From Candidatus Bathyarchaeota archaeon (GTDB lineage Archaea > Thermoproteota > Bathyarchaeia > 40CM-2-53-6 > RBG-13-38-9): a DNA stretch of 64,000 bases. The translations under genes and the position numbers were made by a program. The DNA lies in assembly GCA_026015185.1 (NCBI GenBank), contig JAOZGX010000103.1, positions 2,127 through 66,126 of the forward strand. The letters run 5' to 3'. How positions within the stretch are numbered: position 1 is the stretch's first letter; every line of letters begins with the position of its first letter. The notes below the pieces were generated by a model. It was given only the letters and a program-made list of their open reading frames with translations. It was not told where the DNA came from and made no database searches. This document shows positions 934 to 22,346 of this stretch, in pieces.

Positions 934-949
934 GGGTACCTTGGTACCC
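934..949. repeat. Inverted repeat GGGTACC-TT-GGTACCC flanked by CACACA tracts, just 3' of the helicase gene
   Basis: Perfect 7-bp arms read directly. The core GGGTACCTTGG recurs at 16977-16994 and 22320-22333. Confidence 0.5.
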
Positions 950-1006
950 GCACACACTTAATTATAAAAGCGTAACATATTTTTGATGTAAATCAAATTT
1001 TGAAGC

Positions 1007-1414
1007 GTGTATCATATGAAAAACGCCATTCTAGCGGGTGCGATTGCTGGATTCATCGGTGGCATATTAGCCGGTGTAATAACATATGTGGGTCTTTCAA
1101 TGGGAATGGGGGGAATCAAAGTACCATTATTTAACGCTTTTATTGCTACACTCTTGCTTACTCTCATTTTTGGGACTATTTTCGGATTACTATATAAAGA
1201 ACTTTATCGGTCTATTCCAGGAAAAGGAGTTAAGAAAGGATTTCTCTTCGGCCTGATCATTTGGCTAATCAAAGACATTACAGCAGGGGCATTTCTGGTG
1301 TTTGTATCAAGTATGAATATCTACTATCTTGCTGCTGCAACTAATCTAATCGTTGTTGGAAGTTACCAATGGATGCTCTATGGTCTTACACTTGGATACC
1401 TCTACAAGAAATAA
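1007..1414 (+). CDS. Small 4-TM membrane protein, member 1 of a 4-copy paralog family (AGAIAG ... PGKGxxKG ... GxLYKK)
   Basis: Hydrophobic ORF sharing conserved motifs with 29064..29453(-), 57267..57644(+) and 57924..58331(+). TAA stop. Confidence 0.6.
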   Translation: MYHMKNAILAGAIAGFIGGILAGVITYVGLSMGMGGIKVPLFNAFIATLLLTLIFGTIFGLLYKELYRSIPGKGVKKGFLFGLIIWLIKDITAGAFLVFVSSMNIYYLAAATNLIVVGSYQWMLYGLTLGYLYKK

Positions 1415-1441
1415 CTCTCATTAGCGTGCGCTTGGTGAAAG

Positions 1442-1678
1442 GTGATAAATATGGGATTGAAAGAAAAGTTTCAAAGAAAGATAACGATGAAGGTGTACGA
1501 ACGACAATGTATGGTGATAATCACAGTCTTGGCTACACTGCTCTTTATAAATATTTGGCCAAGGTTCAGGAGCGATGTGATGAGTGTCGATTGGTATTGG
1601 TATGTCATATTGATAGTTATATTCTTGATATTAGCGCGCGGTAAAATCTTGGGATCCGAACATGAAAGCGCTCTCTAA
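1442..1678 (+). CDS. Hypothetical small 2-TM membrane protein
   Basis: 78-aa ORF with two hydrophobic segments in an otherwise empty gap. No homology recognised. Competes with the overlapping ORF 1369..1644. Confidence 0.25.
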   Translation: MINMGLKEKFQRKITMKVYERQCMVIITVLATLLFINIWPRFRSDVMSVDWYWYVILIVIFLILARGKILGSEHESAL

Positions 1679-1731
1679 TTGAAGATTCTTCTTGATATAT
1701 AGATTTCCTTGAATGAGCCATAAATATAACT

Positions 1732-2088
1732 TTGAGTCAATATTATGATATGAAAAGCAAAGAGGTCGATACATACATCAATAAGTTTGATGTAGAGAAG
1801 AAAAAAATTCTCAAGAAATTAAGAGCAATCATTCTGAAAACAAGGCCAGACCTGAAAGAAGAGTTTAAAATGGGAGTTCCTTGGTATGGCGGTCTGTTTT
1901 ATCTTGTTGGTCTTAAAGACCATGTTAACATGGGATTTGCATTTGGCGGTTTAGAAAAACATAAAAAAGAGTTAGAAGGAAAGGGCAAATATATGAGACA
2001 TATTAAATTTTTCTCATCTAAAGATATTGATGAGAATAAATTAATCAGAATGATAAAATTAACAAAAAAGTCATATGGTAAATGTTAA
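1732..2088 (+). CDS. DUF1801 (YdhG-like) domain protein
   Basis: About 118 aa with a pattern typical of the family: KLRAIIL...P.L.E..KMGVPWYG....V.L....VN.GF..G. Confidence 0.55.
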   Translation: MSQYYDMKSKEVDTYINKFDVEKKKILKKLRAIILKTRPDLKEEFKMGVPWYGGLFYLVGLKDHVNMGFAFGGLEKHKKELEGKGKYMRHIKFFSSKDIDENKLIRMIKLTKKSYGKC

Positions 2089-2174
2089 AAAAAGGAAGAA
2101 TCAGGGGAATAGAACTTTTTAAACACACACGCCTTACATAGCGTAAAAAGAAAACGCGCGCACTATACTGCCAA

Positions 2175-2624
2175 TTATTGCATCTCATGCCTTGCAGATT
2201 TAATTATAGAATAAAAGTTAAGCACTTGTATAAATACCAAAAAACCAAGCGAACCAATTATAGCTACTGTTGTCATTGGGTCCATCCGCATTCTGAAGAC
2301 GATAAATGACAATGATAAGTACAATAACAGGATAGCAAGCAAATAAAGAAAATCTGCAAGAATGAACTCATAGTAATGTTTTATTCTTCTACAAATCTGA
2401 GAGCAGGTAACGAATAGAACTATACATAAGAATAGCCATGGATGTATTCGCAAGCCTATGGCCGGATCAAGAAAGATCTTAATCTGTACTGGATCAAAAT
2501 TTAGAAGAATACCAAAACAAACTAACGAAAAACCGGCGAGGAACAAGGAATCTCTTCTAAGGTCTTTTGCATCTTCTCTCTCTTCAGGATTAATTTCCAG
2601 TTTCCAGAATTGTTTCGTCGTCAA
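2175..2624 (-). CDS. Hypothetical integral membrane protein
   Basis: 149-aa ORF with 4 predicted TM helices. TAA stop. Confidence 0.45.
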   Translation of the reverse strand: MTTKQFWKLEINPEEREDAKDLRRDSLFLAGFSLVCFGILLNFDPVQIKIFLDPAIGLRIHPWLFLCIVLFVTCSQICRRIKHYYEFILADFLYLLAILLLYLSLSFIVFRMRMDPMTTVAIIGSLGFLVFIQVLNFYSIIKSARHEMQ

Positions 2625-2793
2625 CTCTAGGCACCATATATATGATGGTGGAGTTCATTTTAGTTAAAAGCATTTCCACAACTTGTGCGCTTGAATTCTA
2701 TCCAGAAAAAGTTATTCTGATAGATTATTAATAAATAGTTCTTGGAATTATAAGAAATACCAAATTGTTACACTCTTTTTTGGGCGTGTCCTA

Positions 2794-3825
2794 ATGTCAA
2801 CAGATCCTATGAAGATACTTATTGAGAAAGGGCAGATAGTTAAAGAACCTATGATACGATTTCTTAAAATTGGTACTAGTCCCGAATTCGAGGAAATAAT
2901 GCGTTGGCAGGTGGAATCTGGAGGAAAGCGAATCAGGCCTGCATTAGCTCTATCATTCGCAAAAGCCATCGGAAAACGGGACCCACAGGATCCAACGATT
3001 ATTGTTGCTGCTGCCGGTATTGAATTGATCCATAACATGTCTCTTATTTATGATGATATAATTGATCAAGCCACAACTCGGAGAGGAAAACCGACTACGC
3101 GAGCTGAATTTGGAGATGAAATGGCAATTTTAGCAGGAATTCAGCATCGGGAATGTATCTACCAAGCTGCAAGAGAAACAGGATCGGATTACTTCCCCGA
3201 AGTTTCTAGATTATTTTCTGAAGCAATTTCTGAGGTGGTTGAGGGAGAGCGCTTAGATGTTCTTTTCGAGCAAAAAGATCGTCCTTTCCCATATTTTACA
3301 AAGCACAAATACGATCTAGTGGTCGAAGAAGATTATTTGCAGATGATAAATGCAAAAACAGCTAGCTTAATTAGAGCTGCTTGTGCTGTTGGAGCTCTAG
3401 TCGGAGGAGGAACAGAGAAACAGATTGAGGCCGCTGGAGAGTTTGGTACTGCCATTGGTCATGCTTTTCAAATCATGGATGATTACCTTGATTTATTTGG
3501 TGATAAGAAACTTGGCAAAGAAATCGGTAAAGACATTATTGAACAAAAACTTGGCAATATTGTTATAATCAAAGCACTTCAGAACCTTTCGCATGAGAAG
3601 CAGGAGGTACTCCTTGAGACCATGAGAAGCGACCTTCGTGAGGAAGAACGAGTATCTAAAGTTATGGATTTAATAAATCAAGGGAATGGTAGGTCTCTTA
3701 CAAGAAAAAGTGCACAGGAGTTTATTGACAAAGCTAAAAAAGCTCTCGAAGAGAACTTTCCAGACTCTGATGAGAGGAGAGTACTCGCTAAAATAGCTGA
3801 CTATGTTGTTTCCAGATTGTATTAA
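2794..3825 (+). CDS. Polyprenyl diphosphate synthase (geranylgeranyl diphosphate synthase-like) with a C-terminal extension
   Basis: First aspartate-rich motif LIYDDIIDQATTRRGKPT and second motif FQIMDDYLDLFGD, matching the trans-isoprenyl diphosphate synthase family. Confidence 0.85.
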   Translation: MSTDPMKILIEKGQIVKEPMIRFLKIGTSPEFEEIMRWQVESGGKRIRPALALSFAKAIGKRDPQDPTIIVAAAGIELIHNMSLIYDDIIDQATTRRGKPTTRAEFGDEMAILAGIQHRECIYQAARETGSDYFPEVSRLFSEAISEVVEGERLDVLFEQKDRPFPYFTKHKYDLVVEEDYLQMINAKTASLIRAACAVGALVGGGTEKQIEAAGEFGTAIGHAFQIMDDYLDLFGDKKLGKEIGKDIIEQKLGNIVIIKALQNLSHEKQEVLLETMRSDLREEERVSKVMDLINQGNGRSLTRKSAQEFIDKAKKALEENFPDSDERRVLAKIADYVVSRLY

Positions 3826-3860
3826 TGGCCAGCAGTGTGACATTACCTGTCAACTAAACT

Positions 3861-3872
3861 AACGCGCGCTAT
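3861..3872. repeat. GC-rich palindrome variant AACGCGCGCTAT, 117-128 nt upstream of the 3989 start
   Basis: Member of the recurrent GCGCGC-core motif family. A second GC block (GCGCGAGCACTAGTGCCC) lies at 3921-3945. Confidence 0.4.
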
Positions 3873-4868: not shown

Positions 4869-5090
4869 ATGCCTTATGTTGAAATATCTATGGGAACAGA
4901 GTCTTTAACCCCTGAGCAAAAAATAAAATTGAACAAAGCTATGAGTGATAGTCTATTGAGAGTCTTTCAGGAGGAAAAAGGAATCAAACCGCCAGTAATT
5001 GTTGTAATACGGGAACACCCGCCTGATAATTGGTTAATTAATGGCGAAACATTAACTGAAGTTAGGAAGAAACGACAAGCTCAGAAATAA
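4869..5090 (+). CDS. 4-oxalocrotonate tautomerase family protein
   Basis: The true start is probably the ATG giving MPYVEI (catalytic Pro1 after Met removal). About 73 aa, the typical 4-OT size. The tracked ORF starts 5 codons earlier. Confidence 0.55.
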   Translation: MPYVEISMGTESLTPEQKIKLNKAMSDSLLRVFQEEKGIKPPVIVVIREHPPDNWLINGETLTEVRKKRQAQK

Positions 5091-5163
5091 TACCTTTCAA
5101 TTAATCTTTTTTTATTATTTTTGATTCTTTCAATGCACTAAGAAATATTAATTAAAGCATTTA

Positions 5164-5775
5164 TTGGTCGATTCTATGCATTCAAAACTTCACAGAAGGG
5201 CTCTTTGGCTTTCATATTTCACATTAGGATACAATATCGTAGAAGGAATCATTTCAATTTTTGCCGGCGCATTAGCGGGAAGTATCGCTTTAGTTGGATT
5301 TGGTCTTGATAGTTTTGTTGAGTCTATTTCAGGTGGAGTCATGATTTGGAGGTTTCATAAACCTGAGAATTTATCAGAAGATGAATTAGAAAGAATTGAG
5401 AAGAAAGCAGCGAAATTTGTGGCCTATTCATTCTTTATTTTAGGGATTTATGTGCTATATGAATCGATTAAAAAACTATATTTTAAAGAAATCCCGAATC
5501 CTAGCCTAATCGGAATAGTAATTGCCATCATCTCAATAATAGCGATGCCTATTCTTTACTATATGAAATATAGAACTGGAAAATCACTGAATAGCAAAAG
5601 TCTGATTGCAGATTCCAAAGAAACTCTTGCATGCGCGTTTCTTTCTGTGGCTTTATTGATTGGTCTAGGACTGAATTATCTATACGGATTCTGGCAGGCA
5701 GATCCTATTGTAGGATTAGTAATTGTTTTATTTCTAATAATTGAGGGGTATGAAACCCTGAAGGAAACAGAATAA
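5164..5775 (+). CDS. Cation-efflux (CDF)-like six-TM membrane protein lacking the cytoplasmic C-domain
   Basis: RRALWLSYFTLGYNIVEGI ... LVGFGLDSFVES (TM2 acidic site) ... IADSKETLACAF (TM5 acidic site) resemble CDF TM motifs. Weak call. Confidence 0.4.
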   Translation: MVDSMHSKLHRRALWLSYFTLGYNIVEGIISIFAGALAGSIALVGFGLDSFVESISGGVMIWRFHKPENLSEDELERIEKKAAKFVAYSFFILGIYVLYESIKKLYFKEIPNPSLIGIVIAIISIIAMPILYYMKYRTGKSLNSKSLIADSKETLACAFLSVALLIGLGLNYLYGFWQADPIVGLVIVLFLIIEGYETLKETE

Positions 5776-5807
5776 AGCGCATACCAAAAATAGGGAATAG
5801 AATGCGT

Positions 5808-5819
5808 TAGCGCGCGCTA
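5808..5819. repeat. Perfect palindrome TAGCGCGCGCTA followed by TTTAAAT
   Basis: Read directly. Identical 12-mer at 34054-34065 and 43065-43076; near-identical at 12977, 14450 and 24475. Confidence 0.6.
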
Positions 5820-7014: not shown

Positions 7015-8958
7015 TTAGTGAGATTCAATATTCTGCAGTTTAGGCAAAGTAAAGGTGAATGTAGCCCCTTTTCCTTTACCTGATGACTCAGCCCATATTT
7101 TGCCACCATGGCCATTTATTAATCCTTTTGTGACACTTAGACCTAGACCTGTACCCTTTATATAACCAGATTTTTTGATGATATCCACAAAAGGCTCGAA
7201 AATTCTATCTATATCTTCATTTTTTATACCAATTCCTGTATCTTTTATCTGAACTTGAATACTTTTCTTCATCTTTTCAACGCTTAATTCTATTTTTCCT
7301 TTTTCGGGAGTGAATTTAGAGGCATTGTTTAGTAGGTTCATTAGAGCTTGGCTTAATCTGATGATATCCCCTTTGACAACTAAATTACCCCTTGGAACCT
7401 TAAAGTTGAATCTTTGTTTTTTTCCCTCAATTAATGGTTTAATTTCATTTACGCAATGCTGAATAACTTCTTGGAAGTCTATTGGTTTAAGGTTTAGTCT
7501 CAGCTTTCCAGATTCAATGCGTCGGATATCTAGCAGTTCGTCGACTAGATTTAAAAGGCGTTCAGTATTTCGCTTTACTATTTCTAATTCTAATACTGCT
7601 TGTTTGGGTAATTTACCTGATTTTCCTTCAATAACTCGGTCTACGAAACCTTTAATGGAAACAAGCGGTGTTCTAAGTTCGTGTGTTGCGTCTGAGATAA
7701 ATTTCTCCATCATTTCCGCACGGTCACGCTTTTCTTTTATCTTTCTAAGCTCATTTTCAGTTTGCTTTTTTTTGGTGATGTCACGAAAAATAGTATGGAC
7801 AGACTGCTCATTTTGGTAACTAATTGGAATTGCTATTATTTCGACATCAATCTCTTTGCCATATACGCTGATAAATCTAATTTCTGAGAGCGGTAAATGA
7901 TCTCCACTTTCCACAAGCATCATCTTTTCTTTTATCATATTTTGATATTCGGGATGAATCATACTTGTTATTGATTTTCCTATGAGTTCTTCAGGATTTA
8001 AATAACCAAGAATTTTTGCTGTAGCAGGATTAGCAAATATTATTCTTCCTTTTCTTAGTACAAAGATCGCATCTGGTGAATATTCAACAAGTCGACGATA
8101 ACGTTCTTCACTTTCCAATAATTCCTTAGAATGCTCGTCAATTAATTGTTCTAAAATTTCTGAATAGCTTTTAAATTCTTTCTCTAAAAGTTCGCGTTCA
8201 GTAATATCCTGTCCTATACTATATAGGAAAGTCTTATTTGATATAATTAAGGGCACAATATTAATCAAAAGCCTTTTAGATCTTCCTTGAATAATATAAT
8301 CCACCTTAATTGTTCGGCGACTAATGAAAGGCAATTGTTTTGATGCCTGAATTTTCATAATATCAGGAGGTAAATCAGCGATTTCACCAATCAAATCTTT
8401 TTTATCGCACTCGAAAAAATCAAGGGCTGCTTTATTGGCATCTATGTAACGTCCGTCTTCATTTATAATCATGATTGGGTTTAGAGCACCCTCGAATAAT
8501 ATTTTTTGTTTATAATCAATTTCAAATAATTCTTCTTCTAATTTCCTGAAATCGCTGATATCTTTTAATTCTATTAAAGCTGCCGACTTACCATTGTACT
8601 CAATTTTCTTCAAATCAATATTTACTATTTTTTCTTTATTATCATCGGAATATATTTTGGCTTCATAAGGTACAACAGGAATTCCAGATATGAGTTTAGA
8701 AAAATTTTCAGTGATAGCTGTCATGCCTTCTTTAGAGAAAAATCCTAATTCAAGAAGATTCAGCCCGATTAACTCTTTAATTTTTAAATTAATTAACTCC
8801 TCAACTTTTTGATTGACTGCTAATATTTTTCCTTCCATGGCTGTAATAAAAGCAGCATCGGTTAATTGGTCAAGAGGGATTTTGAATAGAGGAGTGTCTG
8901 GCACTCTTTTATTCTCTTTTAAGTTAATATCTATGATTTTCTCAATTTTATTACTCAA
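7015..8958 (-). CDS. PAS-domain sensor histidine kinase
   Basis: H-box ATHELRTPLVSIKGF; HATPase N-box LMNLLNNASKF; G-boxes DTGIGI and GTGLGLSVTKGLINGHGGKIW. Multiple PAS-like segments. The C-terminal ~250 aa is about 70% identical to 10951..12720. Confidence 0.85.
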   Translation of the reverse strand: MSNKIEKIIDINLKENKRVPDTPLFKIPLDQLTDAAFITAMEGKILAVNQKVEELINLKIKELIGLNLLELGFFSKEGMTAITENFSKLISGIPVVPYEAKIYSDDNKEKIVNIDLKKIEYNGKSAALIELKDISDFRKLEEELFEIDYKQKILFEGALNPIMIINEDGRYIDANKAALDFFECDKKDLIGEIADLPPDIMKIQASKQLPFISRRTIKVDYIIQGRSKRLLINIVPLIISNKTFLYSIGQDITERELLEKEFKSYSEILEQLIDEHSKELLESEERYRRLVEYSPDAIFVLRKGRIIFANPATAKILGYLNPEELIGKSITSMIHPEYQNMIKEKMMLVESGDHLPLSEIRFISVYGKEIDVEIIAIPISYQNEQSVHTIFRDITKKKQTENELRKIKEKRDRAEMMEKFISDATHELRTPLVSIKGFVDRVIEGKSGKLPKQAVLELEIVKRNTERLLNLVDELLDIRRIESGKLRLNLKPIDFQEVIQHCVNEIKPLIEGKKQRFNFKVPRGNLVVKGDIIRLSQALMNLLNNASKFTPEKGKIELSVEKMKKSIQVQIKDTGIGIKNEDIDRIFEPFVDIIKKSGYIKGTGLGLSVTKGLINGHGGKIWAESSGKGKGATFTFTLPKLQNIESH

Positions 8959-9173
8959 AAATAAATGCTCCAGAAAAAGGCAATAAACTATATAATAATA
9001 TCTAATTTTAGGCTTAAAAAAAATTTCTGGAGAGCGTACTGATTGATTATGCTCTTAAAGAAAATGTTAAGAACCAATTATCAATTATTATATACATAAA
9101 GAAATTTCAATTCATATAATATTCTATTGTGATAATTTTCAAACAAAATATCTTTTGAAATGGCGGAAATATT

Positions 9174-9905
9174 TTGAAAAAATATTCTTCTATGATTTCT
9201 GGCTTAGACGACATTCTCGATGGGGGCTTTCCTAGACCCTCATCAATAGGGATTATTGGAGAGGTTGGATCAGGAAAATCTCTTCTATGTTGGAATCTAA
9301 TGATAAATGCATTAAAACAGGAATACAATGTCTTGTATTATCTGACAGAAGAATCAAAGGAAGAAATGAAAGAAAATATATTACAATACGGATGGGATAT
9401 TGATGATTATGAGAATAAGGGAAATCTAAAAGTAGTTGATATTTTTTCAAAAGGTGTTGACTTAGCCAGAGAATCCCTTATGGAACCTGAGGCGTTAATG
9501 AAGGAATCATTTAATTTCTTCGAAATACTCAAGGAAGGAAGGAATTATTATTTTGGCGCTATTCGAGGAAAGGACCTTGTAGTTTTTTTTGACTCATTAT
9601 CAACAATTTTTTTAGCTATGGAAACGAAGAAAGCATTAGCCTTTCTTCAAAATTTAAAAATGGCAACAAGAGTAGCTCGGTGTGTAGGAATAGCCACCCT
9701 TCATACAAAAGTCCATGATGAGATAATTGAAAATATATGCAAAACTAATGCTGATGGAATAATTCAATTAAGTTCTATAGAAAAAGAAAAAGAACTGGAA
9801 TATTATTTGCGAATATTAAAAATGTCAAGATCTAATTTCTATCAGGGAATAGTTAACTATCGTACTTCAGATAAAGGAGTTGCATTTACGAAAGTTAAGA
9901 TATGA
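9174..9905 (+). CDS. KaiC-like / RecA-superfamily single-domain ATPase
   Basis: SGLDDILDGGFPRPSSIGIIGEVGSGKS (Walker A) in the KaiC/RadA-paralog arrangement. Confidence 0.7.
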   Translation: MKKYSSMISGLDDILDGGFPRPSSIGIIGEVGSGKSLLCWNLMINALKQEYNVLYYLTEESKEEMKENILQYGWDIDDYENKGNLKVVDIFSKGVDLARESLMEPEALMKESFNFFEILKEGRNYYFGAIRGKDLVVFFDSLSTIFLAMETKKALAFLQNLKMATRVARCVGIATLHTKVHDEIIENICKTNADGIIQLSSIEKEKELEYYLRILKMSRSNFYQGIVNYRTSDKGVAFTKVKI

Positions 9906-9984
9906 CCTTAGTGAATCATATATGAATTTTAATAACAATAAATGCTCCTAACGAAATTTGAAAGTACGCACTGAAGGTTAAAAT

Positions 9985-10863
9985 ATGTTAAAAGCTAGCG
10001 GATTTTTTGATCTTACGAGGATAAGATATATTATTTTTCTCAATATCCCTTTGTTGCTATCTGCTTTTATTCTTGCTAAAAATTTTGATTTAAGACTGAT
10101 TCTTTTTATATGCATTTCATACTTCTTTGCTCATTTCTTTGTAAATGCTATAAACGACTTATATGATGTTGAAGAAGATAGAATTAATCGAATAAAATCT
10201 GTTGAAAATCCAATATGTTCTGGAAAAATCTCTAGAAAAGAGGGAAGATATATAACAATTACGTTACCATTTTTTGCTATATTATTTGCTATTCCAACAA
10301 ATCTAATATGGTTGGGTGCAATTATATTCACAATTTTTTTAGGCTGGTCTTATAGCGCACCACCTATTAGAGCTGAGATGAAGCCATGGGGTTTTCTAGT
10401 AAATGAATCTCTTGGAAGCAGTGTTGGATTTGTATGGACTTATTTAGCAGTAAAACCGACTAATTTGAGTTTGCCTTTTTGGGTATTTCCTATTGCCCTT
10501 TTCATATTCTTCAGCCACGCGATAATTATTAGTAAGGATCTTCCCGACATGAAATCAGACCGAGAATATGGCTTTAGGACTTTTGCCTTAGTTTATGGTG
10601 TTAGAACCACTCAAAGATTCATAATTCTGAGTATAATTCTATCATTAATAATCTACTTATACCTCTTAGTGATCGGTATTTTCTCAATTATCAGTTTACC
10701 TTTCGCAATTATCGGTGCGATCTTACCATTGAAGAATATTTCAAAACCTCTTAACCAATTGACAGATCGCCATCTTATTTATCAGAAGGTGATACCTGGA
10801 AGTTTATTCTATTCGATTAGCTTAATATTAGGTTTAGCAGGAAAACTTGTAATTCCATTTTAG
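9985..10863 (+). CDS. UbiA-family integral membrane prenyltransferase
   Basis: NAINDLYDVEEDRIN (NDxxDxxxD) and a second Asp-rich motif KDLPDMKSDREYG. About 8 TM helices. TAG stop. Confidence 0.8.
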   Translation: MLKASGFFDLTRIRYIIFLNIPLLLSAFILAKNFDLRLILFICISYFFAHFFVNAINDLYDVEEDRINRIKSVENPICSGKISRKEGRYITITLPFFAILFAIPTNLIWLGAIIFTIFLGWSYSAPPIRAEMKPWGFLVNESLGSSVGFVWTYLAVKPTNLSLPFWVFPIALFIFFSHAIIISKDLPDMKSDREYGFRTFALVYGVRTTQRFIILSIILSLIIYLYLLVIGIFSIISLPFAIIGAILPLKNISKPLNQLTDRHLIYQKVIPGSLFYSISLILGLAGKLVIPF

Positions 10864-10950: not shown

Positions 10951-12720
10951 TTAAACAATCTCCAGTTTAGGCAAAGTAAAGGAAAATGTAGCTCCTTTTC
11001 CTTCACCTGATGACTCAGCCCATATTTTGCCACCATGAGCCTCCACGAGTCCCTTGGTGACACTGAGGCCTAAGCCAGTACCTTTAAAATAAATAGATTT
11101 TTCGATATTCACAAAAGGTTCAAAAATCCTCTCAAGATCCTTTTTCCTAATGCCTATGCCCGTATCTTTTATTTGAACTTGAATACTTTTCTTCATAGCT
11201 ACAACATTAAGTACTATTTTTCCACCTTCAGGAGTAAATTTGGAGGCGTTGTCTAACAGATTCATTAGAGCTTGACTGAGTCTGACAATATCCCCTTGGA
11301 TGGATAAGCGACCCTTTGGAACTTTCAAGTTAAATCTTTGTTTTTTTTGTTCAATGAATGGTTGAATTTCCCTTGTGCAATTCTGAATAATTTCTTGTAA
11401 GTCCATAGGCTTAATGTTTAGTTCTAACTTTCCAGATTCCATGCGTCGGACATCTAACAGATCGTTGGTTAAACTAAGAAGGCGATCAGTATTTCGCTTC
11501 ACCACCTCTAGCTCTGAAGCAACTTTCTCAGGTAGTAAGCCTACCTTTCCTGAAATAACACGATCTAAGTAACCTTTGATCGATACAAGAGGCGTTCTAA
11601 GCTCATGGGTAGCAGTAGAAATCAATCGATCCATAATTCGCATGCGTGTTTCCTCCTCTTTGGCTCTTCTCATAGCCTTTTCCGCTCGATTGCGTTCAGT
11701 GATGTCACGCATTATAATAAGTCTGCCACCAAGCCGATCGATAATACCGGTCAGAAAGGACATGCGCAAATCGTAGATACGTTGGTCATCTCCTTTACCA
11801 AACACAACTTCCTTGTTTATCTCGGTTCTATTGGAGAAGTCTTCTGCTAGACCAGACCATTCAATCCATACCTTTTCTATAGGTTGCCCAATGACTTCCG
11901 AAAATCTACGGCCTATCAATTTTTCAGTAGAAGAATTCATTTCCACAATATTGTTCTTCGAGTCCAACAAAATAACCGCATCTCTCATTCTGTTAAATAT
12001 AATCCCATGCGCCATTGGCATAATATCTGTCGCACGTAAAGAAATTAGCCTCCATATTAGTATCGGAGTACATATAGTAACTGCTAACGGTGTTGGGTCG
12101 AAGTAAGGAAAAGCATCTGGATAGAAGTATGTAATCATATTAAATATCCAAGGAATAAGCACCACCAATAGCAAAGGCGTTGCTTGCCGGCGATAGAGGG
12201 GGTTTGATTGAATTATGCCTTGGATAAATACAATGGTACCTACTAGAATTAATATATATGAATACGTCAAAAAGAACCCAAACCATAAACCAGGTTCGAT
12301 AATCAGTAAAAAGAATGGATTAATGGCATTCAATGCAATGGAACTCCAGTATAGGCCATGAAAATCATTAGTGAAAATTATTAACAAGGTAGCGATGGGT
12401 ATTACAATTAAAAGTACTAAGTTACGACGTTTCAACCAATTCTCGCGATGGGTAAGCTGTAACGCAAGGATAAACCACATAATAGGCACCATAACAACGC
12501 CAATGTATTGCGTTTTCCTAAATAGAAGCTTGATCTGAAGGTTATCGCTCCCCACCTCCAGCGTGGACGCTAGTAGCCAAATAGCACCAGCTAGCATTAT
12601 CATTGCCCCCACTCGATAAGGACTCTTAAACTTATTAGGTTGCAAAAGAATGTAGAATGCCGCTACGCTTTGTGTAATAGATAATCCTATTAATAGGATC
12701 ATGTATGATGTAATTTCCAA
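10951..12720 (-). CDS. Membrane-anchored sensor histidine kinase (N-terminal multi-TM sensor, PAS, HisKA, HATPase)
   Basis: About 7 N-terminal TM helices. ATHELRTPLVSIKGY H-box, LMNLLDNASKF, GTGLGLSVTKGLVEAHGGKIW. Paralog of 7015..8958; the shared 3' region is also highly similar at the DNA level. Confidence 0.85.
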   Translation of the reverse strand: MEITSYMILLIGLSITQSVAAFYILLQPNKFKSPYRVGAMIMLAGAIWLLASTLEVGSDNLQIKLLFRKTQYIGVVMVPIMWFILALQLTHRENWLKRRNLVLLIVIPIATLLIIFTNDFHGLYWSSIALNAINPFFLLIIEPGLWFGFFLTYSYILILVGTIVFIQGIIQSNPLYRRQATPLLLVVLIPWIFNMITYFYPDAFPYFDPTPLAVTICTPILIWRLISLRATDIMPMAHGIIFNRMRDAVILLDSKNNIVEMNSSTEKLIGRRFSEVIGQPIEKVWIEWSGLAEDFSNRTEINKEVVFGKGDDQRIYDLRMSFLTGIIDRLGGRLIIMRDITERNRAEKAMRRAKEEETRMRIMDRLISTATHELRTPLVSIKGYLDRVISGKVGLLPEKVASELEVVKRNTDRLLSLTNDLLDVRRMESGKLELNIKPMDLQEIIQNCTREIQPFIEQKKQRFNLKVPKGRLSIQGDIVRLSQALMNLLDNASKFTPEGGKIVLNVVAMKKSIQVQIKDTGIGIRKKDLERIFEPFVNIEKSIYFKGTGLGLSVTKGLVEAHGGKIWAESSGEGKGATFSFTLPKLEIV

Positions 12721-12976: not shown

Positions 12977-12988
12977 GAGCGCGCGCTA
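12977..12988. repeat. GC palindrome variant GAGCGCGCGCTA
   Basis: 11 of 12 positions match the TAGCGCGCGCTA family. Sits between the micro-ORF stop and the HK start. Confidence 0.45.
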
Positions 12989-13139: not shown

Positions 13140-13257
13140 TTTTATCACTCAATTAACATAGTGAAAATCAATTATTTAAATTTCTCATATGTAATCCTAA
13201 ATAGAGGATGCTTTTCTCCAAAGAGTCCAGTTACAGATCCAATCTTTAAGGAATCAT

Positions 13258-13908
13258 TCATTTTTTGTTAACTTTTTGATATTCCATGTATGAATAAATA
13301 ATTGAATAGACCGCCACTCCCAATACAGGAATAATTATAAAAAAAATTGCATAATCAACAAAAAAAATCCCTAAAAGAGCGATTATTCCCGTGATCTTAA
13401 AGAGTTTACCTCCGATTTTATGTGTTTTATCCCATACTTTTTCATTGCTTAAGGTACAGGGTGTTCTAATCCCTACAAACCAATTTCTTTTTGCATTTTC
13501 AACTAAGATTCCAGTGTAATAGAAGAGGAAGGCTAATGCTGGAATTAAAAACTGTAATAGGTTAAACCTAAATCCTAAATTCCATGCGATAGTTAAAAGA
13601 TGAATGTATGAGAAAAAGACGATCAGCAAAACCATAAACCGATTATAATATCCTCTAAATTTCTCAATATTCACTTTTAGCGGATCTATTTTGGGAATGA
13701 TGATAAAAAGCAATAATAGACTAATGGAAACAAAGGGCATTAAAAAAAGACCCCAGAATTTTGTCATATAGCCGTCAACTTGCCCTAGCTCATTCCAGTG
13801 AGAAGCCATTTTATCAGGCATTTTAGGGTAATAAAAGATCCCTAAAACAAATGAAACTAGAATTAATAGAAGAATTATCGACTCATATTTTCTTAGAGCC
13901 ATCGCCAT
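13258..13908 (-). CDS. SdpI/YhfL-family membrane protein (DUF1648-type)
   Basis: NWFVGIRTPCTLSNEKVWDKTHKIGGKLF is the hallmark SdpI-family motif. 6 TM helices. Confidence 0.6.
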   Translation of the reverse strand: MAMALRKYESIILLLILVSFVLGIFYYPKMPDKMASHWNELGQVDGYMTKFWGLFLMPFVSISLLLLFIIIPKIDPLKVNIEKFRGYYNRFMVLLIVFFSYIHLLTIAWNLGFRFNLLQFLIPALAFLFYYTGILVENAKRNWFVGIRTPCTLSNEKVWDKTHKIGGKLFKITGIIALLGIFFVDYAIFFIIIPVLGVAVYSIIYSYMEYQKVNKK

Positions 13909-13923
13909 CTCACATCAATTCAA

Positions 13924-14449: not shown

Positions 14450-14461
14450 TAGCGCGCGCAT
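14450..14461. promoter_or_regulatory. GC palindrome variant TAGCGCGCGCAT in the divergent intergenic region between the cupin and aminotransferase genes
   Basis: Member of the recurrent motif family, about 115-130 nt from both divergent starts. Confidence 0.3.
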
Positions 14462-14574
14462 ACCCAACATACGCTAAAGCATTATATGTAACAGCTTTAT
14501 TGTCTTAAGAATAATTTTTTAATGGAATTAAACATTCTAAAAAACGATTCGTGAACGTAAAAGGTGTAGAGTAA

Positions 14575-15849: not shown

Positions 15850-16962
15850 ATGAAGATAAAAAATATTCATGCTTACGAATTGAATTGCGAACTTAAAGAG
15901 CCTCTACGCATTTCTTATAAAAATTTTGTTGATATAAGGAATATTTTGGTTCTCATTGAGACAGATGAAGATTATACGGGAATTGGTGAATCCGTTCCGC
16001 TTAAACCTCAAACAGGAGACACACAAAAAGAAGCATTCGATCTTCTTAAAAAAGCAAATATCATATTGAAAGGCCAAGATCCTTCTGATATTGAAGGCAT
16101 CCATGCCCTCCTGGAAGAAATTTCAAAGAAAGAAGGGATTAATAGCCAAACAGCGAAGGCTGCAATCGACTCTGCATGTTACGATATAGTAGGAAAAGCC
16201 GAAAAGAAACCCATCTACAAGGTTCTCGGTCAAGAACAGTTCAGAAGAGTACCAAATGCTGTTACGGTCTACATAAGTTCTGTGGAAGAGACAGTGAAGA
16301 AGACAAGATATACGATGAAAAAACATTCAAAAAACGGATTGAGTAGGCTGAAACTTAAGCTCTCAGGTGAACCTGGGCTTGATAAAGAAAGAGTGATGGC
16401 TGTGGCTTCAATATTCGATGGGGAACTGATTTTAGATGCGAATCAAGCATATGGAGATGCGAATCTAGCGATAAAAATCTTCAACAGCTTATATGATACT
16501 TTGGGATCCAGAGTAATCTTAATCGAACAACCATCACCAATGGATGACTTTACTAAATTGAAATATATTTCTGATAGATGTGAGATTCCTATCTTTGCGG
16601 ACGAATCTGCAGCCACTTTAGAAGACTTTCAGAAAATAACTGAAGAAAAAGTTGCAAAGGGAATTAATATGAAGTTACAAAGGCTAGGGGGAATATATTG
16701 GGGGAATAAGATGGCCGAATTGACTAAAGATTATGGGATGGACATGTCTGTAGGTTGTTTGCCAGAAAGCGGAGTTGGCATGGCTTATGATACTCATTTT
16801 CTAGCAGGAATTTCTAAAAGTGTTATTGGTTCGGATCTTGATACTGATTTAGAACTTAAAACGGATATAGTTAAAGAACAATCCAAAATCCCTTTTGAGA
16901 ATGGAGCACGTTTCCCTTTGGACAAACCAGGACTTGGAGTAGAGCTAAAAAATCAGTATTAA
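15850..16962 (+). CDS. Enolase-superfamily enzyme (mandelate racemase/muconate lactonizing enzyme / dipeptide epimerase-like)
   Basis: KxK motif RLKLKLSG; metal ligands in LILDANQAYG, ILIEQP and IFADESAATLED. Confidence 0.8.
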   Translation: MKIKNIHAYELNCELKEPLRISYKNFVDIRNILVLIETDEDYTGIGESVPLKPQTGDTQKEAFDLLKKANIILKGQDPSDIEGIHALLEEISKKEGINSQTAKAAIDSACYDIVGKAEKKPIYKVLGQEQFRRVPNAVTVYISSVEETVKKTRYTMKKHSKNGLSRLKLKLSGEPGLDKERVMAVASIFDGELILDANQAYGDANLAIKIFNSLYDTLGSRVILIEQPSPMDDFTKLKYISDRCEIPIFADESAATLEDFQKITEEKVAKGINMKLQRLGGIYWGNKMAELTKDYGMDMSVGCLPESGVGMAYDTHFLAGISKSVIGSDLDTDLELKTDIVKEQSKIPFENGARFPLDKPGLGVELKNQY

Positions 16963-16976
16963 TTTCATTCTAACAA

Positions 16977-16994
16977 GCGCGCACCAAGGTACCC
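16977..16994. repeat. GCGCGCACCAAGGTACCC followed by an ACACACAC tract
   Basis: Reverse complement of GGGTACCTTGGTGCGCGC, matching 22320-22335 and the 934-949 core. Confidence 0.5.
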
Positions 16995-17124
16995 ACACAC
17001 ACAAAAATATAATTCCTAATGGGACTGAGGAAGAAGGAGTAATAAAAAGTAATTAAATTTTAGAACGCACTATTCTGTCTCTATAAGAACTTTCTTATAT
17101 GCATCTTCTACTTTAGCACCCGCT

Positions 17125-18123
17125 TTATAGTTCTATCTCAATCAACAATTTTTCCAAGAGCTCTTTATACCGATTTCTAATAGTTACCTCCGTAACGTTG
17201 GCCACTTCTGCTATCTCTCTCTGCGGCTTTCTTTCATTAGTGAGCACTGTTGCAAGATAAGTAGCTGCAGCTACTATGCCTAGAGGTCCCCGACCGCTGG
17301 TTAGCTTCATTTTCTTGGCAGCCCCAAGTATCTTTATAGCTATAATCTCAGCCGTACCTGAAATTGCTAATTTATTTGAAAGTCTGGAAGCATGACTGCT
17401 ACTTTTCAATAGTGGTACAAAAGAATCCAATTCTTTGATTATGAACCTATAACTTCTCGCTAAATCTTTCCTATTTAAGCTGGAAGCAGTGGCTATCTCC
17501 TCCAACGTTCTTGGGATCCCGCACTTCCTGCATGACAAGTAAATAGTAGCTGCTATTATACTATGGATGGACCTGCCGCGGCTTATTTTCTTCTTAACGG
17601 CTTCCCGGTATATCACGGAAGCCGTTTCCACTATACTCCTTGGGAGATTTAAGGCAGATGAAAGTTTACTAAGCTGCGATAGTGCTACAGCCAAATTTCT
17701 CTCAGTAGCATCGAGAACACGAATTTGTCTCTGCCGCTTTCTGAGAGCATAAAGCTCCAATCTCTGCTTAGAAGATATTTTTCCACCTATTGATCTTTTA
17801 TCTTTCCAATCTATGGTGGTCGACAAACCTTTATCATGAATGGTGTAAGTTATTGGCGCGCCCACGCGTGTTCTTTTAGCTCTTTGTTCGTCGTCAAAAG
17901 CTCTCCACTCTGGTTTAGTGTCTATAATCTTTTCGTCTATTACATAGCCACATTCGATGCAAACAATTTCCGCGATGTCATAATCTCTCATCAAATTCGA
18001 GTTGCCACATTCGGGGCATTTCCTTGGTTTACTCTTTACCGAGATGTGACTTTTAGCACTCTGATCGGTGTGCGCATATATTGTAAGATGTGGTGCTTTA
18101 TCGAACCTTCCCAGAGTGATCAC
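17125..18123 (-). CDS. tfb: Transcription initiation factor IIB (TFB)
   Basis: N-terminal Zn ribbon CPECGNS...CIECGYV, B-finger, two cyclin-fold repeats and the C-terminal HTH (NVTEVTIRNRYKEL). Confidence 0.9.
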   Translation of the reverse strand: MITLGRFDKAPHLTIYAHTDQSAKSHISVKSKPRKCPECGNSNLMRDYDIAEIVCIECGYVIDEKIIDTKPEWRAFDDEQRAKRTRVGAPITYTIHDKGLSTTIDWKDKRSIGGKISSKQRLELYALRKRQRQIRVLDATERNLAVALSQLSKLSSALNLPRSIVETASVIYREAVKKKISRGRSIHSIIAATIYLSCRKCGIPRTLEEIATASSLNRKDLARSYRFIIKELDSFVPLLKSSSHASRLSNKLAISGTAEIIAIKILGAAKKMKLTSGRGPLGIVAAATYLATVLTNERKPQREIAEVANVTEVTIRNRYKELLEKLLIEIEL

Positions 18124-18175
18124 TTCATCCCTTAGATAAGGTATGAAGTCAGGCTATTCCATATTAACATATTGG

Positions 18176-18189
18176 GAGCGCGTGCGCTA
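18176..18189. promoter_or_regulatory. Near-palindrome GAGCGCGTGCGCTA, 53 nt upstream of the tfb start
   Basis: Variant of the GC palindrome family with an extra central T. Its spacing from the start matches the 24475, 34054 and 43065 sites. Confidence 0.3.
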
Positions 18190-18294
18190 AAGCAAAAAAA
18201 ATCTAGTATAATTCTGCAAAAATTTAATTTTATATTATTAGCGTATGCTATCTCGGTAAACTCTTATATTATTTCAATGTACATAAAATGAGGC

Positions 18295-18675: not shown

Positions 18676-18884
18676 ACGCGTGTGCTAGTCAAGATCCGAT
18701 AATAATGATATCGTTCTTCATAACCCACACATTACGATAGACTAAGGAAGCATCGTTATTTCAGATATTATCTATTATTTACCTGACATAGGGTTTATAG
18801 AATACAAGGCAACTGAAAAGCTAACGCATTTACTACCAATTCTTAAAAATGATGAAGAATTAAATTACTACCTCAACAATTAAG

Positions 18885-19094: not shown

Positions 19095-19097
19095 GTC

Positions 19098-20411
19098 ATG
19101 AATGATTTCGATGCTTTTATATCAATAATAGATATTGAAGAGGAACAACTTGCATCAGGAGACGAATCAAAAGGTTCTTGGATTATAATAGAACTTCCAG
19201 AAGGAAGTGATTATACTACAGTAGAAATTGAAGTTGAGGCACCAAATGAACCCAAGATTTGGCATCTATCTGCTGTAGCTCTAGCTTGGATTGTTGATAC
19301 GCAAGAATTCGATGTGTTTGGAGCCTACCCTGATAGAAATTTTGATGTGGAAGTCAAACCTACAAAATATACGCTCACATTAAGTGTAACTCCTTCTGAG
19401 TCAGAGAAGCATATGACAGTCACCGGAGGAGGAGAATACGAAAGTGGGCAAAAAGTTGAATTAAAAACTGCGGAAAAAGTTCCAGGTGCAGAAGGAACTC
19501 AATATATTTTCGAAAAATTCTTGATCAACGGAAAGGAAGAGACTGCAAACCCAACAATCATAACGGTAGACCAAGACTATGATATCGTCATGAAATATAG
19601 TACGCAATACTATCTCACAGTTGAGTCAAGTTACGGTACAACATCTGGTGAAGGGTGGTATGAAGATGGGGATAAATCCTTTGCATCTTTGGATATAGAA
19701 AAGATGAGTTCTGGATTTCCTTATGTCTGGAAATTCAAAAGGTGGAGTGGTGATGCTTCTGGTACAGGGCTAACTTCATCTCCTATTACAATGGACAGAC
19801 CTAAAAAAGCTATTGCAATTTGGGAGCAAGAGTTTGGGTGCTTTATTGCTACAGCTACTTATGGCTCTGAGCTTTCACCTGAAGTAACATTTCTAAGAGG
19901 CTTTAGGGATGACCTAGTTTTAACAACATATGCTGGCAATCAATTTATGCAAGTCTTTAACAAGCTCTATTACTCCTTTAGCCCATCAGTAGCTAGGTTT
20001 GTATACGAGAACAATGATGTTGGAATGGCTATGAAGCTAGCTTTATACCCTCTTTTGGGAATACTCCATGTATCAGCTGTGACCTACTCAATTTTCAGTT
20101 TTACTCCAGAGTTAGCGGTAATCTTGTCTGGCTTTGTCGCTAGTTCATTAATTGGTCTAATTTACTTCACGCCAACCACTTTAGGCCTTACAATGATTAC
20201 GAGAAAATTCAAGGGAACAAAGCTAAATACTGGGCATCTAATGCCTATTGCGATATTGGTCTTTTTGAGTATCTTATCGATTCTCATAGGAGAAATTACA
20301 AGGATCACGATGCTAGTACAGATAGCTACAGCAACTTTTGTACTGTCGATCATCTACCTTACTTCTTTATTTGCGACTATGAAAATAGCCAAACGCACTA
20401 GAATTTTCTAG
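19098..20411 (+). CDS. Cell-surface protein with Ig-like region, CFIATATYGS...LRGFRDD motif and a 4-TM C-terminal anchor (possibly a continuation of 18885..19094)
   Basis: No signal peptide of its own; this would be supplied by the upstream fragment if the TAG is read through or is an error. The CFIATAxYGS motif is typical of archaeal surface-protein anchoring domains. TAG stop. Confidence 0.6.
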   Translation: MNDFDAFISIIDIEEEQLASGDESKGSWIIIELPEGSDYTTVEIEVEAPNEPKIWHLSAVALAWIVDTQEFDVFGAYPDRNFDVEVKPTKYTLTLSVTPSESEKHMTVTGGGEYESGQKVELKTAEKVPGAEGTQYIFEKFLINGKEETANPTIITVDQDYDIVMKYSTQYYLTVESSYGTTSGEGWYEDGDKSFASLDIEKMSSGFPYVWKFKRWSGDASGTGLTSSPITMDRPKKAIAIWEQEFGCFIATATYGSELSPEVTFLRGFRDDLVLTTYAGNQFMQVFNKLYYSFSPSVARFVYENNDVGMAMKLALYPLLGILHVSAVTYSIFSFTPELAVILSGFVASSLIGLIYFTPTTLGLTMITRKFKGTKLNTGHLMPIAILVFLSILSILIGEITRITMLVQIATATFVLSIIYLTSLFATMKIAKRTRIF

Positions 20412-20619
20412 AATTACGGAAGAACACTCAATTAACTTTCCTTTTTTTATTGGTGCGCGCTACACTATACTTCATGGCTTTAGAGATAAATCGGTCAATG
20501 TAATAATCCTTAAATAGCACATCATTTACATGTGGTGTAAACAAAATTAGTATTGCCAGAAATGGTCAAAAATGATTGACGAACTAGCACGCTATTTCAA
20601 ATATATCAATTACTAGGTT

Positions 20620-21990
20620 ATGGTATTTTCTGAATTAAAACTAGAGGAAGTTGAATCGAAAATGTTTTCGCATAAAATTAAGGTTTTACTTATCATTTTC
20701 ACTTTATGCTCTATGATTTCAATCGAAACAGGTTTTAGGACAAGGATATTTGTACAAGCTGAGAATAGTGTGGATAATGGCGACATTGAAAAAGTAAGAA
20801 TAGTGGATAGAGACGCTTTAAAGAAAAAGATCGATGAAAATGAAGATTTTGTTCTATTTGATGCGCGTACCTTAAAGAGTTACGAAAAAGAGCATATAAT
20901 AGGCGCGATATCTCTTCCTGTCAATGAGGCTGAAGTTAGGGTCGGGACCATCATCCCAGATAAGAATAAAGAGATAATTGTTTATTGCAGTAGTAAATAT
21001 TGTCCTGAAAGTTCTCTTTTAGTGGAAATACTTGTTGATTTGGGCTATACAAATGTAGCGCATTATGAGGGGGGAATCGATGATTGGAAAGAGGTAGGAT
21101 ATCCAACAGAGAAAAATGAGCGCGCGCGCTTACCTGTAGATGCTCAACAAGATTACACAATAATCTCTAATGAAATAGATTCGACTGTAGTTTTTGATGG
21201 AAAATGGACTACTGATGAAGAATGGAAAAATGGAACTCCAATATCTATGAGATTTAATCCTACTGCGCAAAATGTTGGCCTCATAAATAACGGTACGGTA
21301 TATTGTCAAATAAAGCGTGATGGTGAGGAATTATTCGTTCTGATCGATGCTGTTTCATCCCCAGATCCTTCTGGGAATTATACATCTGGATGGGATTTCT
21401 ATGGAGTGTGTATCGACTCTAATAATGAAAAGTCTGAATACCCGATGAAAGACGATTTAATTATTTCATTGACTTGGTTACTTCAAAATGGGAGCTACTG
21501 GGTAATGAATGGTTTTGGTAGAGTTACAGAGCCTGGATGGGATGCGGCAAATGCAAGAAAAGATCCTGTATACCTAAAACACTCAATTAGTTCATCACCA
21601 TTGTCTGAGAAACCCCATGTAGTATGCGAATTAGCCATTCCATTAGAAGATATGGGTGATGAAATTGGTTTTGGAGTAGTTGCTATTAATTTTTCAAACA
21701 AAACCATTAATACGTGGCCAGACAATTTTGTGGACGGTTCACCCAAAACTTGGGGAACTGTGATTATTAACAAAACAACCGAAATCATTGAGACACCAAT
21801 TTCTATTCAAACAACTAAACCAGCTCAAAATCAAACTGCACCTCCTCCAACTGAAGAAATCGATAAGAATGGTTCGATGAATATTTGGGAATCTCTCTCT
21901 TCACAAACAATTTTCATATTAATTATTGGTGTTATACTGGTTGTCGCGATTATTTTTATAGCTAGGAAATTACTAAAAAGAAAGAAATGA
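20620..21990 (+). CDS. Secreted, membrane-anchored rhodanese-domain protein with a C-terminal beta-rich domain and a Pro/Thr linker
   Basis: Rhodanese fold FVLFDARTLKSYEKEHIIGAISLP ... IIVYCSSKYC (active-site Cys loop) ... YEGGIDDWKEVGYP. The likely start is M15 (signal peptide MFSHKIKVLLIIFTLCS). C-terminal TM plus KRKK. Confidence 0.7.
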   Translation: MVFSELKLEEVESKMFSHKIKVLLIIFTLCSMISIETGFRTRIFVQAENSVDNGDIEKVRIVDRDALKKKIDENEDFVLFDARTLKSYEKEHIIGAISLPVNEAEVRVGTIIPDKNKEIIVYCSSKYCPESSLLVEILVDLGYTNVAHYEGGIDDWKEVGYPTEKNERARLPVDAQQDYTIISNEIDSTVVFDGKWTTDEEWKNGTPISMRFNPTAQNVGLINNGTVYCQIKRDGEELFVLIDAVSSPDPSGNYTSGWDFYGVCIDSNNEKSEYPMKDDLIISLTWLLQNGSYWVMNGFGRVTEPGWDAANARKDPVYLKHSISSSPLSEKPHVVCELAIPLEDMGDEIGFGVVAINFSNKTINTWPDNFVDGSPKTWGTVIINKTTEIIETPISIQTTKPAQNQTAPPPTEEIDKNGSMNIWESLSSQTIFILIIGVILVVAIIFIARKLLKRKK

Positions 21991-22033
21991 TGCTTTAAGT
22001 TCTCCCCTACTAGTACGCGTGCTTTTAATGTAA

Positions 22034-22273
22034 ATGGAGCTAGCCATCTTGTCGAGAGACGTGTCTTTTCGTAGAGATATTTACTTTGCTTTTTTAGGCG
22101 CTATGCTTGGCTTTATCGTTTTTGTGATATATGATATCTACGTTGACTTTGCAACAATCCTATTTGATCTGACTTTCAAAGGTAGATTTTATGCTAAGGT
22201 GTTTTTATCATCAATCATATTCTTAATCGTAATCTTACTAGCAAGGATATGGATAAGGCGATTTCAGCATTAA
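22034..22273 (+). CDS. Hypothetical small 2-TM membrane protein
   Basis: 79-aa hydrophobic ORF. No homology recognised. Confidence 0.3.
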   Translation: MELAILSRDVSFRRDIYFAFLGAMLGFIVFVIYDIYVDFATILFDLTFKGRFYAKVFLSSIIFLIVILLARIWIRRFQH

Positions 22274-22306
22274 TTGAGTTGCTTTTTTAGCGTGTGCTTT
22301 TTATTT

Positions 22307-22346
22307 TTCGTCGTCGTCGGGTACCTTGGTGCGCGACGACGACGAA
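22307..22346. terminator. Strong hairpin between convergent genes: 13-bp stem TTCGTCGTCGTCG / CGACGACGACGAA with a 14-nt loop GGTACCTTGGTGCG, preceded by a T-run
   Basis: Read directly. The stem is a (TCG)4 tract and the loop carries the recurrent GGGTACCTTGG motif. Sits between the stops of 22034..22273(+) and 22382..24505(-). Confidence 0.4.

Follow-up and report, generated by a model that had tools for sequence, protein, structure and literature searches.

We analysed a 64,000-nucleotide stretch of DNA from a Candidatus Bathyarchaeota archaeon (assembly GCA_026015185.1, contig JAOZGX010000103.1), hereafter called the window, in which a preliminary description had noticed that a GC-rich 11-mer, GGGTACCTTGG, recurs at three sites behind genes. 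The evidence leads us to favor, with some reserve, the reading that the three sites belong to a lineage-restricted family of short intergenic repeats interspersed in Bathyarchaeota genomes, a family similar to the bacterial repetitive extragenic palindromes (REPs) whose copies act as recombination junctions. That such a family exists is shown; some relatives have it in abundance, while it is rare in the lineage of the window, and it is located mostly between genes. Blocks of near-identity between related contigs stop at its core or within a few bases of it. The window holds three low-copy members and one half copy. Bathyarchaeia are abundant uncultured sediment archaea known from metagenomes only; the window, with a GC content of about 36%, is archaeal, as marked by its TFIIB gene (17125-18123, - strand).

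GGGTACCTTGG matches the window exactly three times, at 934-944 (+), 16984-16994 (-) and 22319-22329 (+), versus a mean of 0.01 expected from 100 dinucleotide-preserving shuffles, none of which reached three, so that the recurrence is non-random, as had been claimed. The strings quoted in the preliminary description were correct, and only the start of the third site had to be moved from 22320 to 22319. A search allowing up to two mismatches gave no convincing extra copies in the window. Copies 2 and 3 have the 17-mer GGGTACCTTGGTGCGCG in common, and copy 1 is indeed an inverted repeat. The sites had been placed just past stop codons, and all three are intergenic, at 15-47 nt from such codons: copy 1 lies 38 nt past the stop of a DEAD-helicase gene at 896, copy 2 lies 15 nt past that of an enolase-superfamily gene at 16962, and copy 3 lies 45 nt past the stop of the open reading frame (ORF) 22034-22273 and 47 nt from that of the convergent gene 22382-24505. 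The possible half copy TGGTGCGCGC is located 40 nt past the stop of ORF 19098-20411. Both kinds of flank already noticed, CACACA and GCGCGC, are present and turned out to be part of the arm architecture of the family. The left flank of copy 2 agrees with the family consensus of a T-run, (GT)n and core, while its right flank is extended to GCGCGC by the GC at 16977-16978, with ACACACACA on the other side (16977-17003). A profile hidden Markov model (HMM) of the family, built from relatives only with the window left out, recovered copy 2 (E=7.5e-6), copy 3 (E=1.4e-5) and, marginally, copy 1 (E=0.078); its match to the half copy was not significant (E=3.1). A site near 43065 (GGGTAACCAAGCTAGCGCGCGC, 43053-43074), mentioned in the preliminary description, resembles the element only loosely and is undetected by the HMM.

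What is conserved is not the 11-mer as such. The core has the general form GGGT-N4-TGGTGCG(C/G), 16 nt long and bipartite with a variable 4-nt middle, and in the near-matches of related loci (numbered here with the prefix L) the fixed positions are GGGT....TGGTGCG only. The N4 occurs in classes, ACCT, CTCT and AGGC being the most frequent, besides CTCG, CCCT, CAGC and others. Since only the outer parts are fixed and N4 varies, GGGTACCTTGG is the commonest version of the left two-thirds of the core, with ACCT merely the commonest filling. Allowing no more than one mismatch among the 11 fixed positions, we counted 173 copies in 56 related loci plus the window (57 loci), among the matches listed. 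These copies form a graded decay series with discrete N4 subfamilies. The left arm consists of a T-run and (GT)n or (GTC)n, and the right arm of (AC)n or (GAC)n and an A-run, so composed that the arms show dyad symmetry. In the consensus, the short T-run on the left and the A-run on the right stand beyond the simple repeats, and 30-56% of copies have T-runs next to the left arm. The two arms assort freely in type: the 46 typed copies (short form n=122) comprise 25 GT/AC, 10 GT/GAC, 10 GTC/AC and a single GTC/GAC, the combination found in copy 3 of the window thus being the rarest. In a long form (47/173 copies), the right side continues as GC(R)YC-NN-RATTTGAACC, followed by (GTC)n, and such units often stand in arrays with a period of 50-68 nt.

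A scan with GGGTACCTTGGTRCSC over one genome per prokaryotic species (185,579 species genomes) returned at least 120 matches. Among the matches listed, the only AT-rich, context-matching hits were five contigs from three labelled Bathyarchaeota metagenome-assembled genomes (MAGs; L031/L115, L111/L112 and L056), all five with the exact 16-mer GGGTACCTTGGTGCGC and window-like simple-repeat flanks, and the GC-rich bacterial matches stood in unrelated contexts. Several of these Bathyarchaeota MAG loci, 5-8 kb long, hold extra copies at 1-3 mismatches, with three within 1.2 kb in L056. The 16-mer was also searched in JGI metagenome contigs, giving at least 120 loci. Among the 120 listed, 50 have (GT)n or (GTC)n to the left of the exact core and (AC)n or (GAC)n to its right. 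In about half, the left flank is (GT)n, (GTC)n or (GGT)n, and the right flank is (AC)n, (GAC)n, a C-run or (ACC)n; these contigs are mostly of about 50% GC, and a few are AT-rich. An MtmB gene is the sole taxonomic hint for the contigs of about 50% GC. The earlier suggestion of a small dispersed element, similar to REPs or to MITEs (miniature inverted-repeat transposable elements), is supported by the recurrence of core and flanks in other Bathyarchaeota and in about 55 metagenome contigs, mostly between genes and often clustered. A viral origin was rejected, all 17 IMG/VR matches lying in unrelated GC-rich contexts. In the literature searched, the 16-mer was absent from papers and the 11-mer appeared only in cloning primers, and searching by topic turned up no work on repeats of this kind in Bathyarchaeota.

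As many as 72% of the 173 copies lie outside ORFs of at least 90 aa, versus only 24% of the bases, and many form pairs or arrays within 150 nt. In these loci, most of which were chosen for carrying the motif, convergent gaps have the highest density (2.09/kb), followed by tandem (1.44/kb) and divergent gaps (0.87/kb). Elements in tandem gaps have no bias to the upstream stop over the downstream start (18 vs 20), and the short form is unbiased in orientation relative to neighbouring genes (36 vs 33). An orientation rule suggested by early data, in which 9 of 10 elements were downstream of a co-oriented gene, was lost once more short-form copies were included. By contrast with the short form, the tRNA-like strand of the long form (see below) is co-oriented with the upstream gene in a ratio of 17:3. 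L262, an 18.8-kb locus fetched through a protein and not through the motif, was studied with JGI gene calls: it contains about 8 elements (about 0.4 per kb), seven of them intergenic and one in a gene call of 55 aa that is doubtful. There is none in a 9-kb stretch whose genes, an ABC transporter among them, all run in the same direction. Copy number falls from about 1 per 1-2 kb in the contigs of about 50% GC to 3 in the 64 kb of the window and 0 in L264.

The cores coincide with breaks of homology between related contigs. Over 3.3 kb, L197 and L217 show 99.8% identity, GGGTAGCTTGGTGCG being the last part that they share; beyond it they are unrelated, one of them running on as the long form and the other as the short form. 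In L224, the left flank of L172 and the right flank of L171 are joined at one element, and a 460-nt block common to L171 and L224 has a core on either side in each of the two loci. Of five internal ends of high-scoring segment pairs (at least 92% identity), four fall within 10 nt of a core, where core density is about 1 per kb. The window and L001 (91% nucleotide identity) cease to match at the enolase stop 16962 and match again from 18236, indicating that copy 2 and the TFIIB gene lie in a strain-variable segment, while homology with L264 starts at 20462, two bases past the half copy. The free assortment of arm types is the expected product of recombination at the core.

Some further observations concern the same loci. 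At 11640-11680 of L171, a head-to-head fusion of two cores (GCGCACCAAATGACCTACCTTGGTGCGC) lies at the edge of the 460-nt block, and a Cas1 gene is found in this locus at 8987-10252. Where the window has 16963-18235 with its TFIIB paralogue, L001 and L002 carry two or three small unassigned ORFs. At 242-261 of L001, a match to window positions 5002-5263 is joined directly to a match to 13248-13914 via the microhomology GAAGGAATCATT, a junction that reflects either an 8-kb strain difference or a chimeric contig.

Taken as a mobile repeat, the element would multiply by copy-and-paste, since a 16-mer cannot recur by chance. It would persist where insertion is tolerated, mainly away from promoters, which would account for the bias to gene 3' ends and convergent gaps. 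Its core would then serve as a substrate for homologous or site-specific recombination and reshuffle the flanking gene blocks. Several points weigh against this reading. No transposase, integrase or reverse transcriptase was seen beside the elements, whose neighbours are ordinary genes; no target-site duplication or defined terminal inverted repeat was identified, and there are no direct repeats around the window copies. No insertion polymorphism with an empty site was found, and no insertion boundary was readable because L001/L002 and L264/L265 are not collinear with the window around copies 2 and 3. The breakpoints come from metagenome assemblies, in which some may be chimeric joins at repeats, and the densities are biased because all related loci except L262 were chosen for containing the motif. 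Moreover, the window and its closest relatives are copy-poor (3 copies in the 64 kb of the window, and none in 15 kb of L264 or in 6.8 kb of L001), and the 11 positions kept exactly across lineages of 33% to 53% GC are equally compatible with a host function. As for a mobilising enzyme, no gene for one, such as a REP-associated tyrosine transposase (RAYT), was found near the elements, whole genomes not having been searched. A transposon with its own gene was considered for the 143-aa ORFs flanked by elements in L056 and L111 and rejected, as one is a NUDIX protein and the other is without a family match; a 183-aa ORF in L112 has no family assignment either. Going one step further, the core could be the crossover site of a chromosome-wide cassette exchange in Bathyarchaeia, in which a putative recombinase or tRNA-3'-end mechanism cuts and rejoins, N4 is a compatibility spacer and core-bounded blocks are swapped between strains; we put this forward as a speculative idea that is more probably wrong than right by a wide measure.

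The main competitor, a protein-binding site having already been among the candidates first proposed, is one that we hold to be improbable: the core would be the binding site of a conserved host DNA-binding protein (architectural, insulator or roadblock) between transcription units, selection would keep the copies and recombination would be a side effect. A site with 11 invariant positions around a variable spacer of fixed 4-nt length, conserved at such different GC contents, with arms dyad-symmetric in composition and present in every type of gap, divergent included, speaks for this explanation, and in L262 about one element stands between most separated genes with none in the ABC-transporter stretch. 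However, copy number is hugely variable among related lineages (about 1 per 1-2 kb, 3 in 64 kb, 0 in L264), which is unusual for an essential host site, the decayed copies and discrete N4 subfamilies resemble birth-and-death dynamics, and no candidate protein was identified. Another explanation, less likely than the host protein, is a transcript 3'-end element at gene ends (terminator, RNA-stabilising hairpin or processing site), which would match the position of the three window copies behind stop codons, the high density in convergent gaps, the frequent T-runs by the left arm, the orientation of the long form and the hairpin of copy 3. In this copy, as had been described, a perfect 13-bp inverted repeat (22306-22318 / 22335-22347; hairpin of 13-14 bp) has the core as its 16-nt loop, and the fold of -41.3 kcal/mol (z = -4.9) is very stable on both strands. 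The folding of each copy, suggested in the preliminary description, gave a strong result here, a modest one for copy 1 (a 7-bp hairpin; region z = -2.1) and none for copy 2, which has no stable fold and does no better than shuffles (z +0.5 and +0.7). Across the family, complementarity between the arms is 6.18/12 for an element's own flanks and 6.42 ± 0.13 for flanks re-paired between elements. A terminator scan gave no hairpin-plus-T-tail at 934, 16984 or 22319 and no enrichment of terminator-like sites in the region, and Rfam had no match in the window, in six related loci (E up to 1) or in a long-form array (E up to 10). From copy 2, the re-pairing control, the terminator scan and the Rfam null, we reject a hairpin terminator as a shared property, and the conserved terminator or RNA-processing structure first proposed is not supported; the hairpin of copy 3 is an incidental result of the arms that this copy combines. 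The wider 3'-end explanation also has against it the unbiased orientation of the short form, the even placement in tandem gaps, the copies in divergent gaps and the family consensus, in which the T-run is on the 5' side of the potential stem and the A-run on the 3' side. Altogether, we would be surprised if it proved correct.

A different origin is brought up by the long form, whose reverse complement reads GGTTCAAAT-YNNGR-YGCC-CGCACCA, then N4-ACCC-(AC)n. Compared by eye, this module resembles the T-loop, the 3' strand of the T-stem, the 3' strand of the acceptor stem, the discriminator A and the CCA of a tRNA. We treat a tRNA origin as a lead and not as a result, the resemblance being one of sequence only, with no 5' partner strand. 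According to this explanation, the family would derive from a tRNA 3' end and have spread via an RNA intermediate in the manner of short interspersed nuclear elements (SINEs) or retro-pseudogenes, or else its TGG... strand would be a complement of the tRNA 3' end similar to a primer-binding site. The order from T-loop to CCA followed by a simple-repeat tail speaks for it, together with an orphan tRNA 3' portion at 1572-1660 of L193, with a true T-arm (GTGGGTTCGAATCCCAC), a CTCCCGC acceptor strand, A and CCA and no detectable 5' half, which is followed by AAACTAGC(AC)n and may hint at the origin of the family. Nevertheless, covariance models stay silent on the long-form array even at E up to 10, and ARAGORN found no tRNA gene in the window or in any related locus. 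The C61 of tRNAs is near-invariant, and most units have T at this position; the 5' strand of the T-stem is present in none. In addition, the 5' boundary is fixed at GGTTCAAAT and not randomly truncated, and no reverse transcriptase was seen. A tRNA gene, a split tRNA or a known RNA family was rejected on the ARAGORN and Rfam results, L193 giving an isolated T-arm match only. An RNA-mediated, tRNA-derived element therefore appears to us very doubtful and, like the 3'-end element, less likely than the host binding site.

To our knowledge, REP-like interspersed repeats are well known in bacteria and barely described in archaea. RAYTs are IS200/IS605-like Y1 transposases whose gene lies between two inverted REPs. 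The family described here resembles REPs and BIMEs (bacterial interspersed mosaic elements) in several respects: its members are short, measuring about 35-45 nt when the arms are included, high-copy and intergenic, they cluster in both direct and inverted orientation and are more frequent at gene 3' ends, and the family is divided into subfamilies with decayed copies and tied to rearrangements. High copy number, extragenic location and clustering hold across the family (173 copies, 57 loci listed), while the window itself has only 3 copies. Bacterial REPs and BIMEs are mobilised by RAYTs (Nunvar et al. 2010, PMC2817692; for REPINs, PMC3116915), and their hallmarks are a GC-rich imperfect palindrome able to form a stem-loop and a GT(A/G)G head at the 5' end (PMC2817692). 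Copies flanked by (GT)n start with TGTGGG, which contains a GT(A/G)G-like head (...TGTGGGT), but this GTGG head is missing from copy 1 and from (GTC)n-flanked copies including copy 3. Likewise, members of the ACCT subfamily are imperfect palindromes and copy 1 is a perfect one, but self-complementarity of the core is restricted to the ACCT class, most N4 classes being non-palindromic. The family also differs in its archaeal host, in a bipartite centre with a variable 4-nt spacer instead of a GC-rich stem, in microsatellite-like arms that are not complementary in cis and in the tRNA-end-like module of its long form.

Other known systems share fewer traits with it. MITEs and Correia-type elements are also non-coding, dispersed and intergenic, with copy numbers that vary strongly among related genomes, but the present unit is far shorter and has no defined terminal inverted repeats, target-site duplication or parent insertion sequence, its arms being simple repeats of independent type on each side. 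With integron attC sites it shares short, imperfectly symmetric sites that have small conserved boxes and a variable middle and stand after ORFs at the boundaries of exchangeable blocks, and a further parallel is that homology between relatives breaks at the element. In contrast, an integron integrase, a one-directional cassette array and GTTRRRY/RYYYAAC boxes are all absent, the core differs in sequence from the attC boxes (R''/L''/L'/R'), and the elements are scattered among ordinary chromosomal genes, lying in either orientation, with neighbouring genes that likewise point both ways; no integrase was found among the window genes scanned (21 to 32485 and 41960-44048). Eukaryotic tRNA-derived SINEs and retro-pseudogenes likewise present a many-copy tRNA-like segment that ends in CCA before a simple-sequence tail. 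The family differs from them in covering positions ~52-76 only, with no cloverleaf and no internal promoter boxes, in its prokaryotic host, in its fixed 5' boundary and in having no known reverse transcriptase.

The window contains a second, far more abundant intergenic motif, a GC-rich alternating purine-pyrimidine run, 8-12 nt long and with TA as its flanks. The 12-bp palindrome TAGCGCGCGCTA is the consensus, from which variants differ by transitions, and at up to two mismatches it has 11 matches in the window versus 0.49 expected. The runs lie 0-41 nt past a stop codon in about 18 of 25 cases and are enriched in L001, L264 and L056, not in the contigs of about 50% GC. When the window is compared with L001 and L264 (about 91% identical), three of about eight homology breakpoints are within 15 nt of such a run (breakpoint/run 16962/16977, 18236/18241 and 20462/20453), and these relatives carry an alternating run at the same three junctions. 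The runs may mark boundaries of exchangeable gene blocks and, in AT-rich lineages such as that of the window, may play a role related to that of the core. Cyanobacterial HIP1 (GCGATCGC) is a highly iterated short palindrome spread through genes as well. The TAGCGCGCGCTA motif resembles it in being palindromic, short and GC-rich, with a strong over-representation in an AT-rich genome, but differs in being almost wholly intergenic and close behind stop codons.

Other features of the window were recorded along the way. Two histidine-kinase genes on the - strand (7015-8958 and 10951-12720) resemble each other towards the 3' end, where about 470 nt of their DNA are 78-81% identical, one encoding PAS/HisKA/HATPase domains and the other 7TM-HisKA. 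A multi-haem c-type cytochrome ORF (PF13447, MtrC/MtrF-like; 29638-31131, - strand) adjoins a glutamyl-tRNA reductase gene (31172-32485). Inverted repeats of 40-126 nt with 70-75% identity connect 25-29 kb with 58-59 kb (26543-26749 / 58940-59149 and 28998-29123 / 58272-58397) and are probably paralogous genes on opposite strands. Finally, an AT-rich palindromic stretch with repeated CCTAATTAGG / AACCTAAT units occupies a divergent intergenic gap at 40315-40384.

Table. Repeat copies and alternating purine-pyrimidine runs in the window.
Feature	Position	Strand	Description
Copy 1, core variant GGGTACCTTGGTACCC	934-949	+	Perfect 7-bp palindrome around TT; 2 mismatches versus the family core
Copy 1 with alternating purine-pyrimidine flanks	915-957		GCGTGCACACAT at 915-926, CGCACACAC at 949-957
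Copy 2, exact 16-nt core GGGTACCTTGGTGCGC	16979-16994	-	+ strand reads GCGCACCAAGGTACCC
Copy 2, left flank (element orientation)	16995-17007	-	T5 + (GT)4; + strand reads ACACACACAAAAA
Copy 3, exact 16-nt core GGGTACCTTGGTGCGC	22319-22334	+	
Copy 3 with flanks TTTCGTCGTCGTC and GACGACGACGAAA	22306-22347	+	(GTC)n / (GAC)n type, here complementary
Possible half copy TGGTGCGCGC	20451-20460	+	Same sequence as the right half in copies 2 and 3
Alternating run GCGTGTGC	22290-22297		Separate run in the gap of copy 3; TAGCGCGCGCTA-type family
Alternating runs, examples	1424-1431, 3862-3869, 5810-5817, 12979-12986, 14452-14463, 18178-18187		
Alternating runs, further examples	18676-18685, 20453-20460, 22013-22022, 24473-24483, 34056-34063, 43067-43074		

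The repeat family is apparently undescribed and unusual, the three copies in the window being unremarkable by themselves, and these three sites should not be annotated as terminators. In MAGs of Bathyarchaeia, the family would be a likely cause of contig breaks and mis-joins. With its core of 11 conserved positions, kept across lineages of diverse GC content, it would be a marker of genome plasticity and offer a handle for finding the enzyme that recognises it. The family may mark sites of gene-block exchange and, if the core proves to be a crossover site, a new recombination system would be possible in these archaea.

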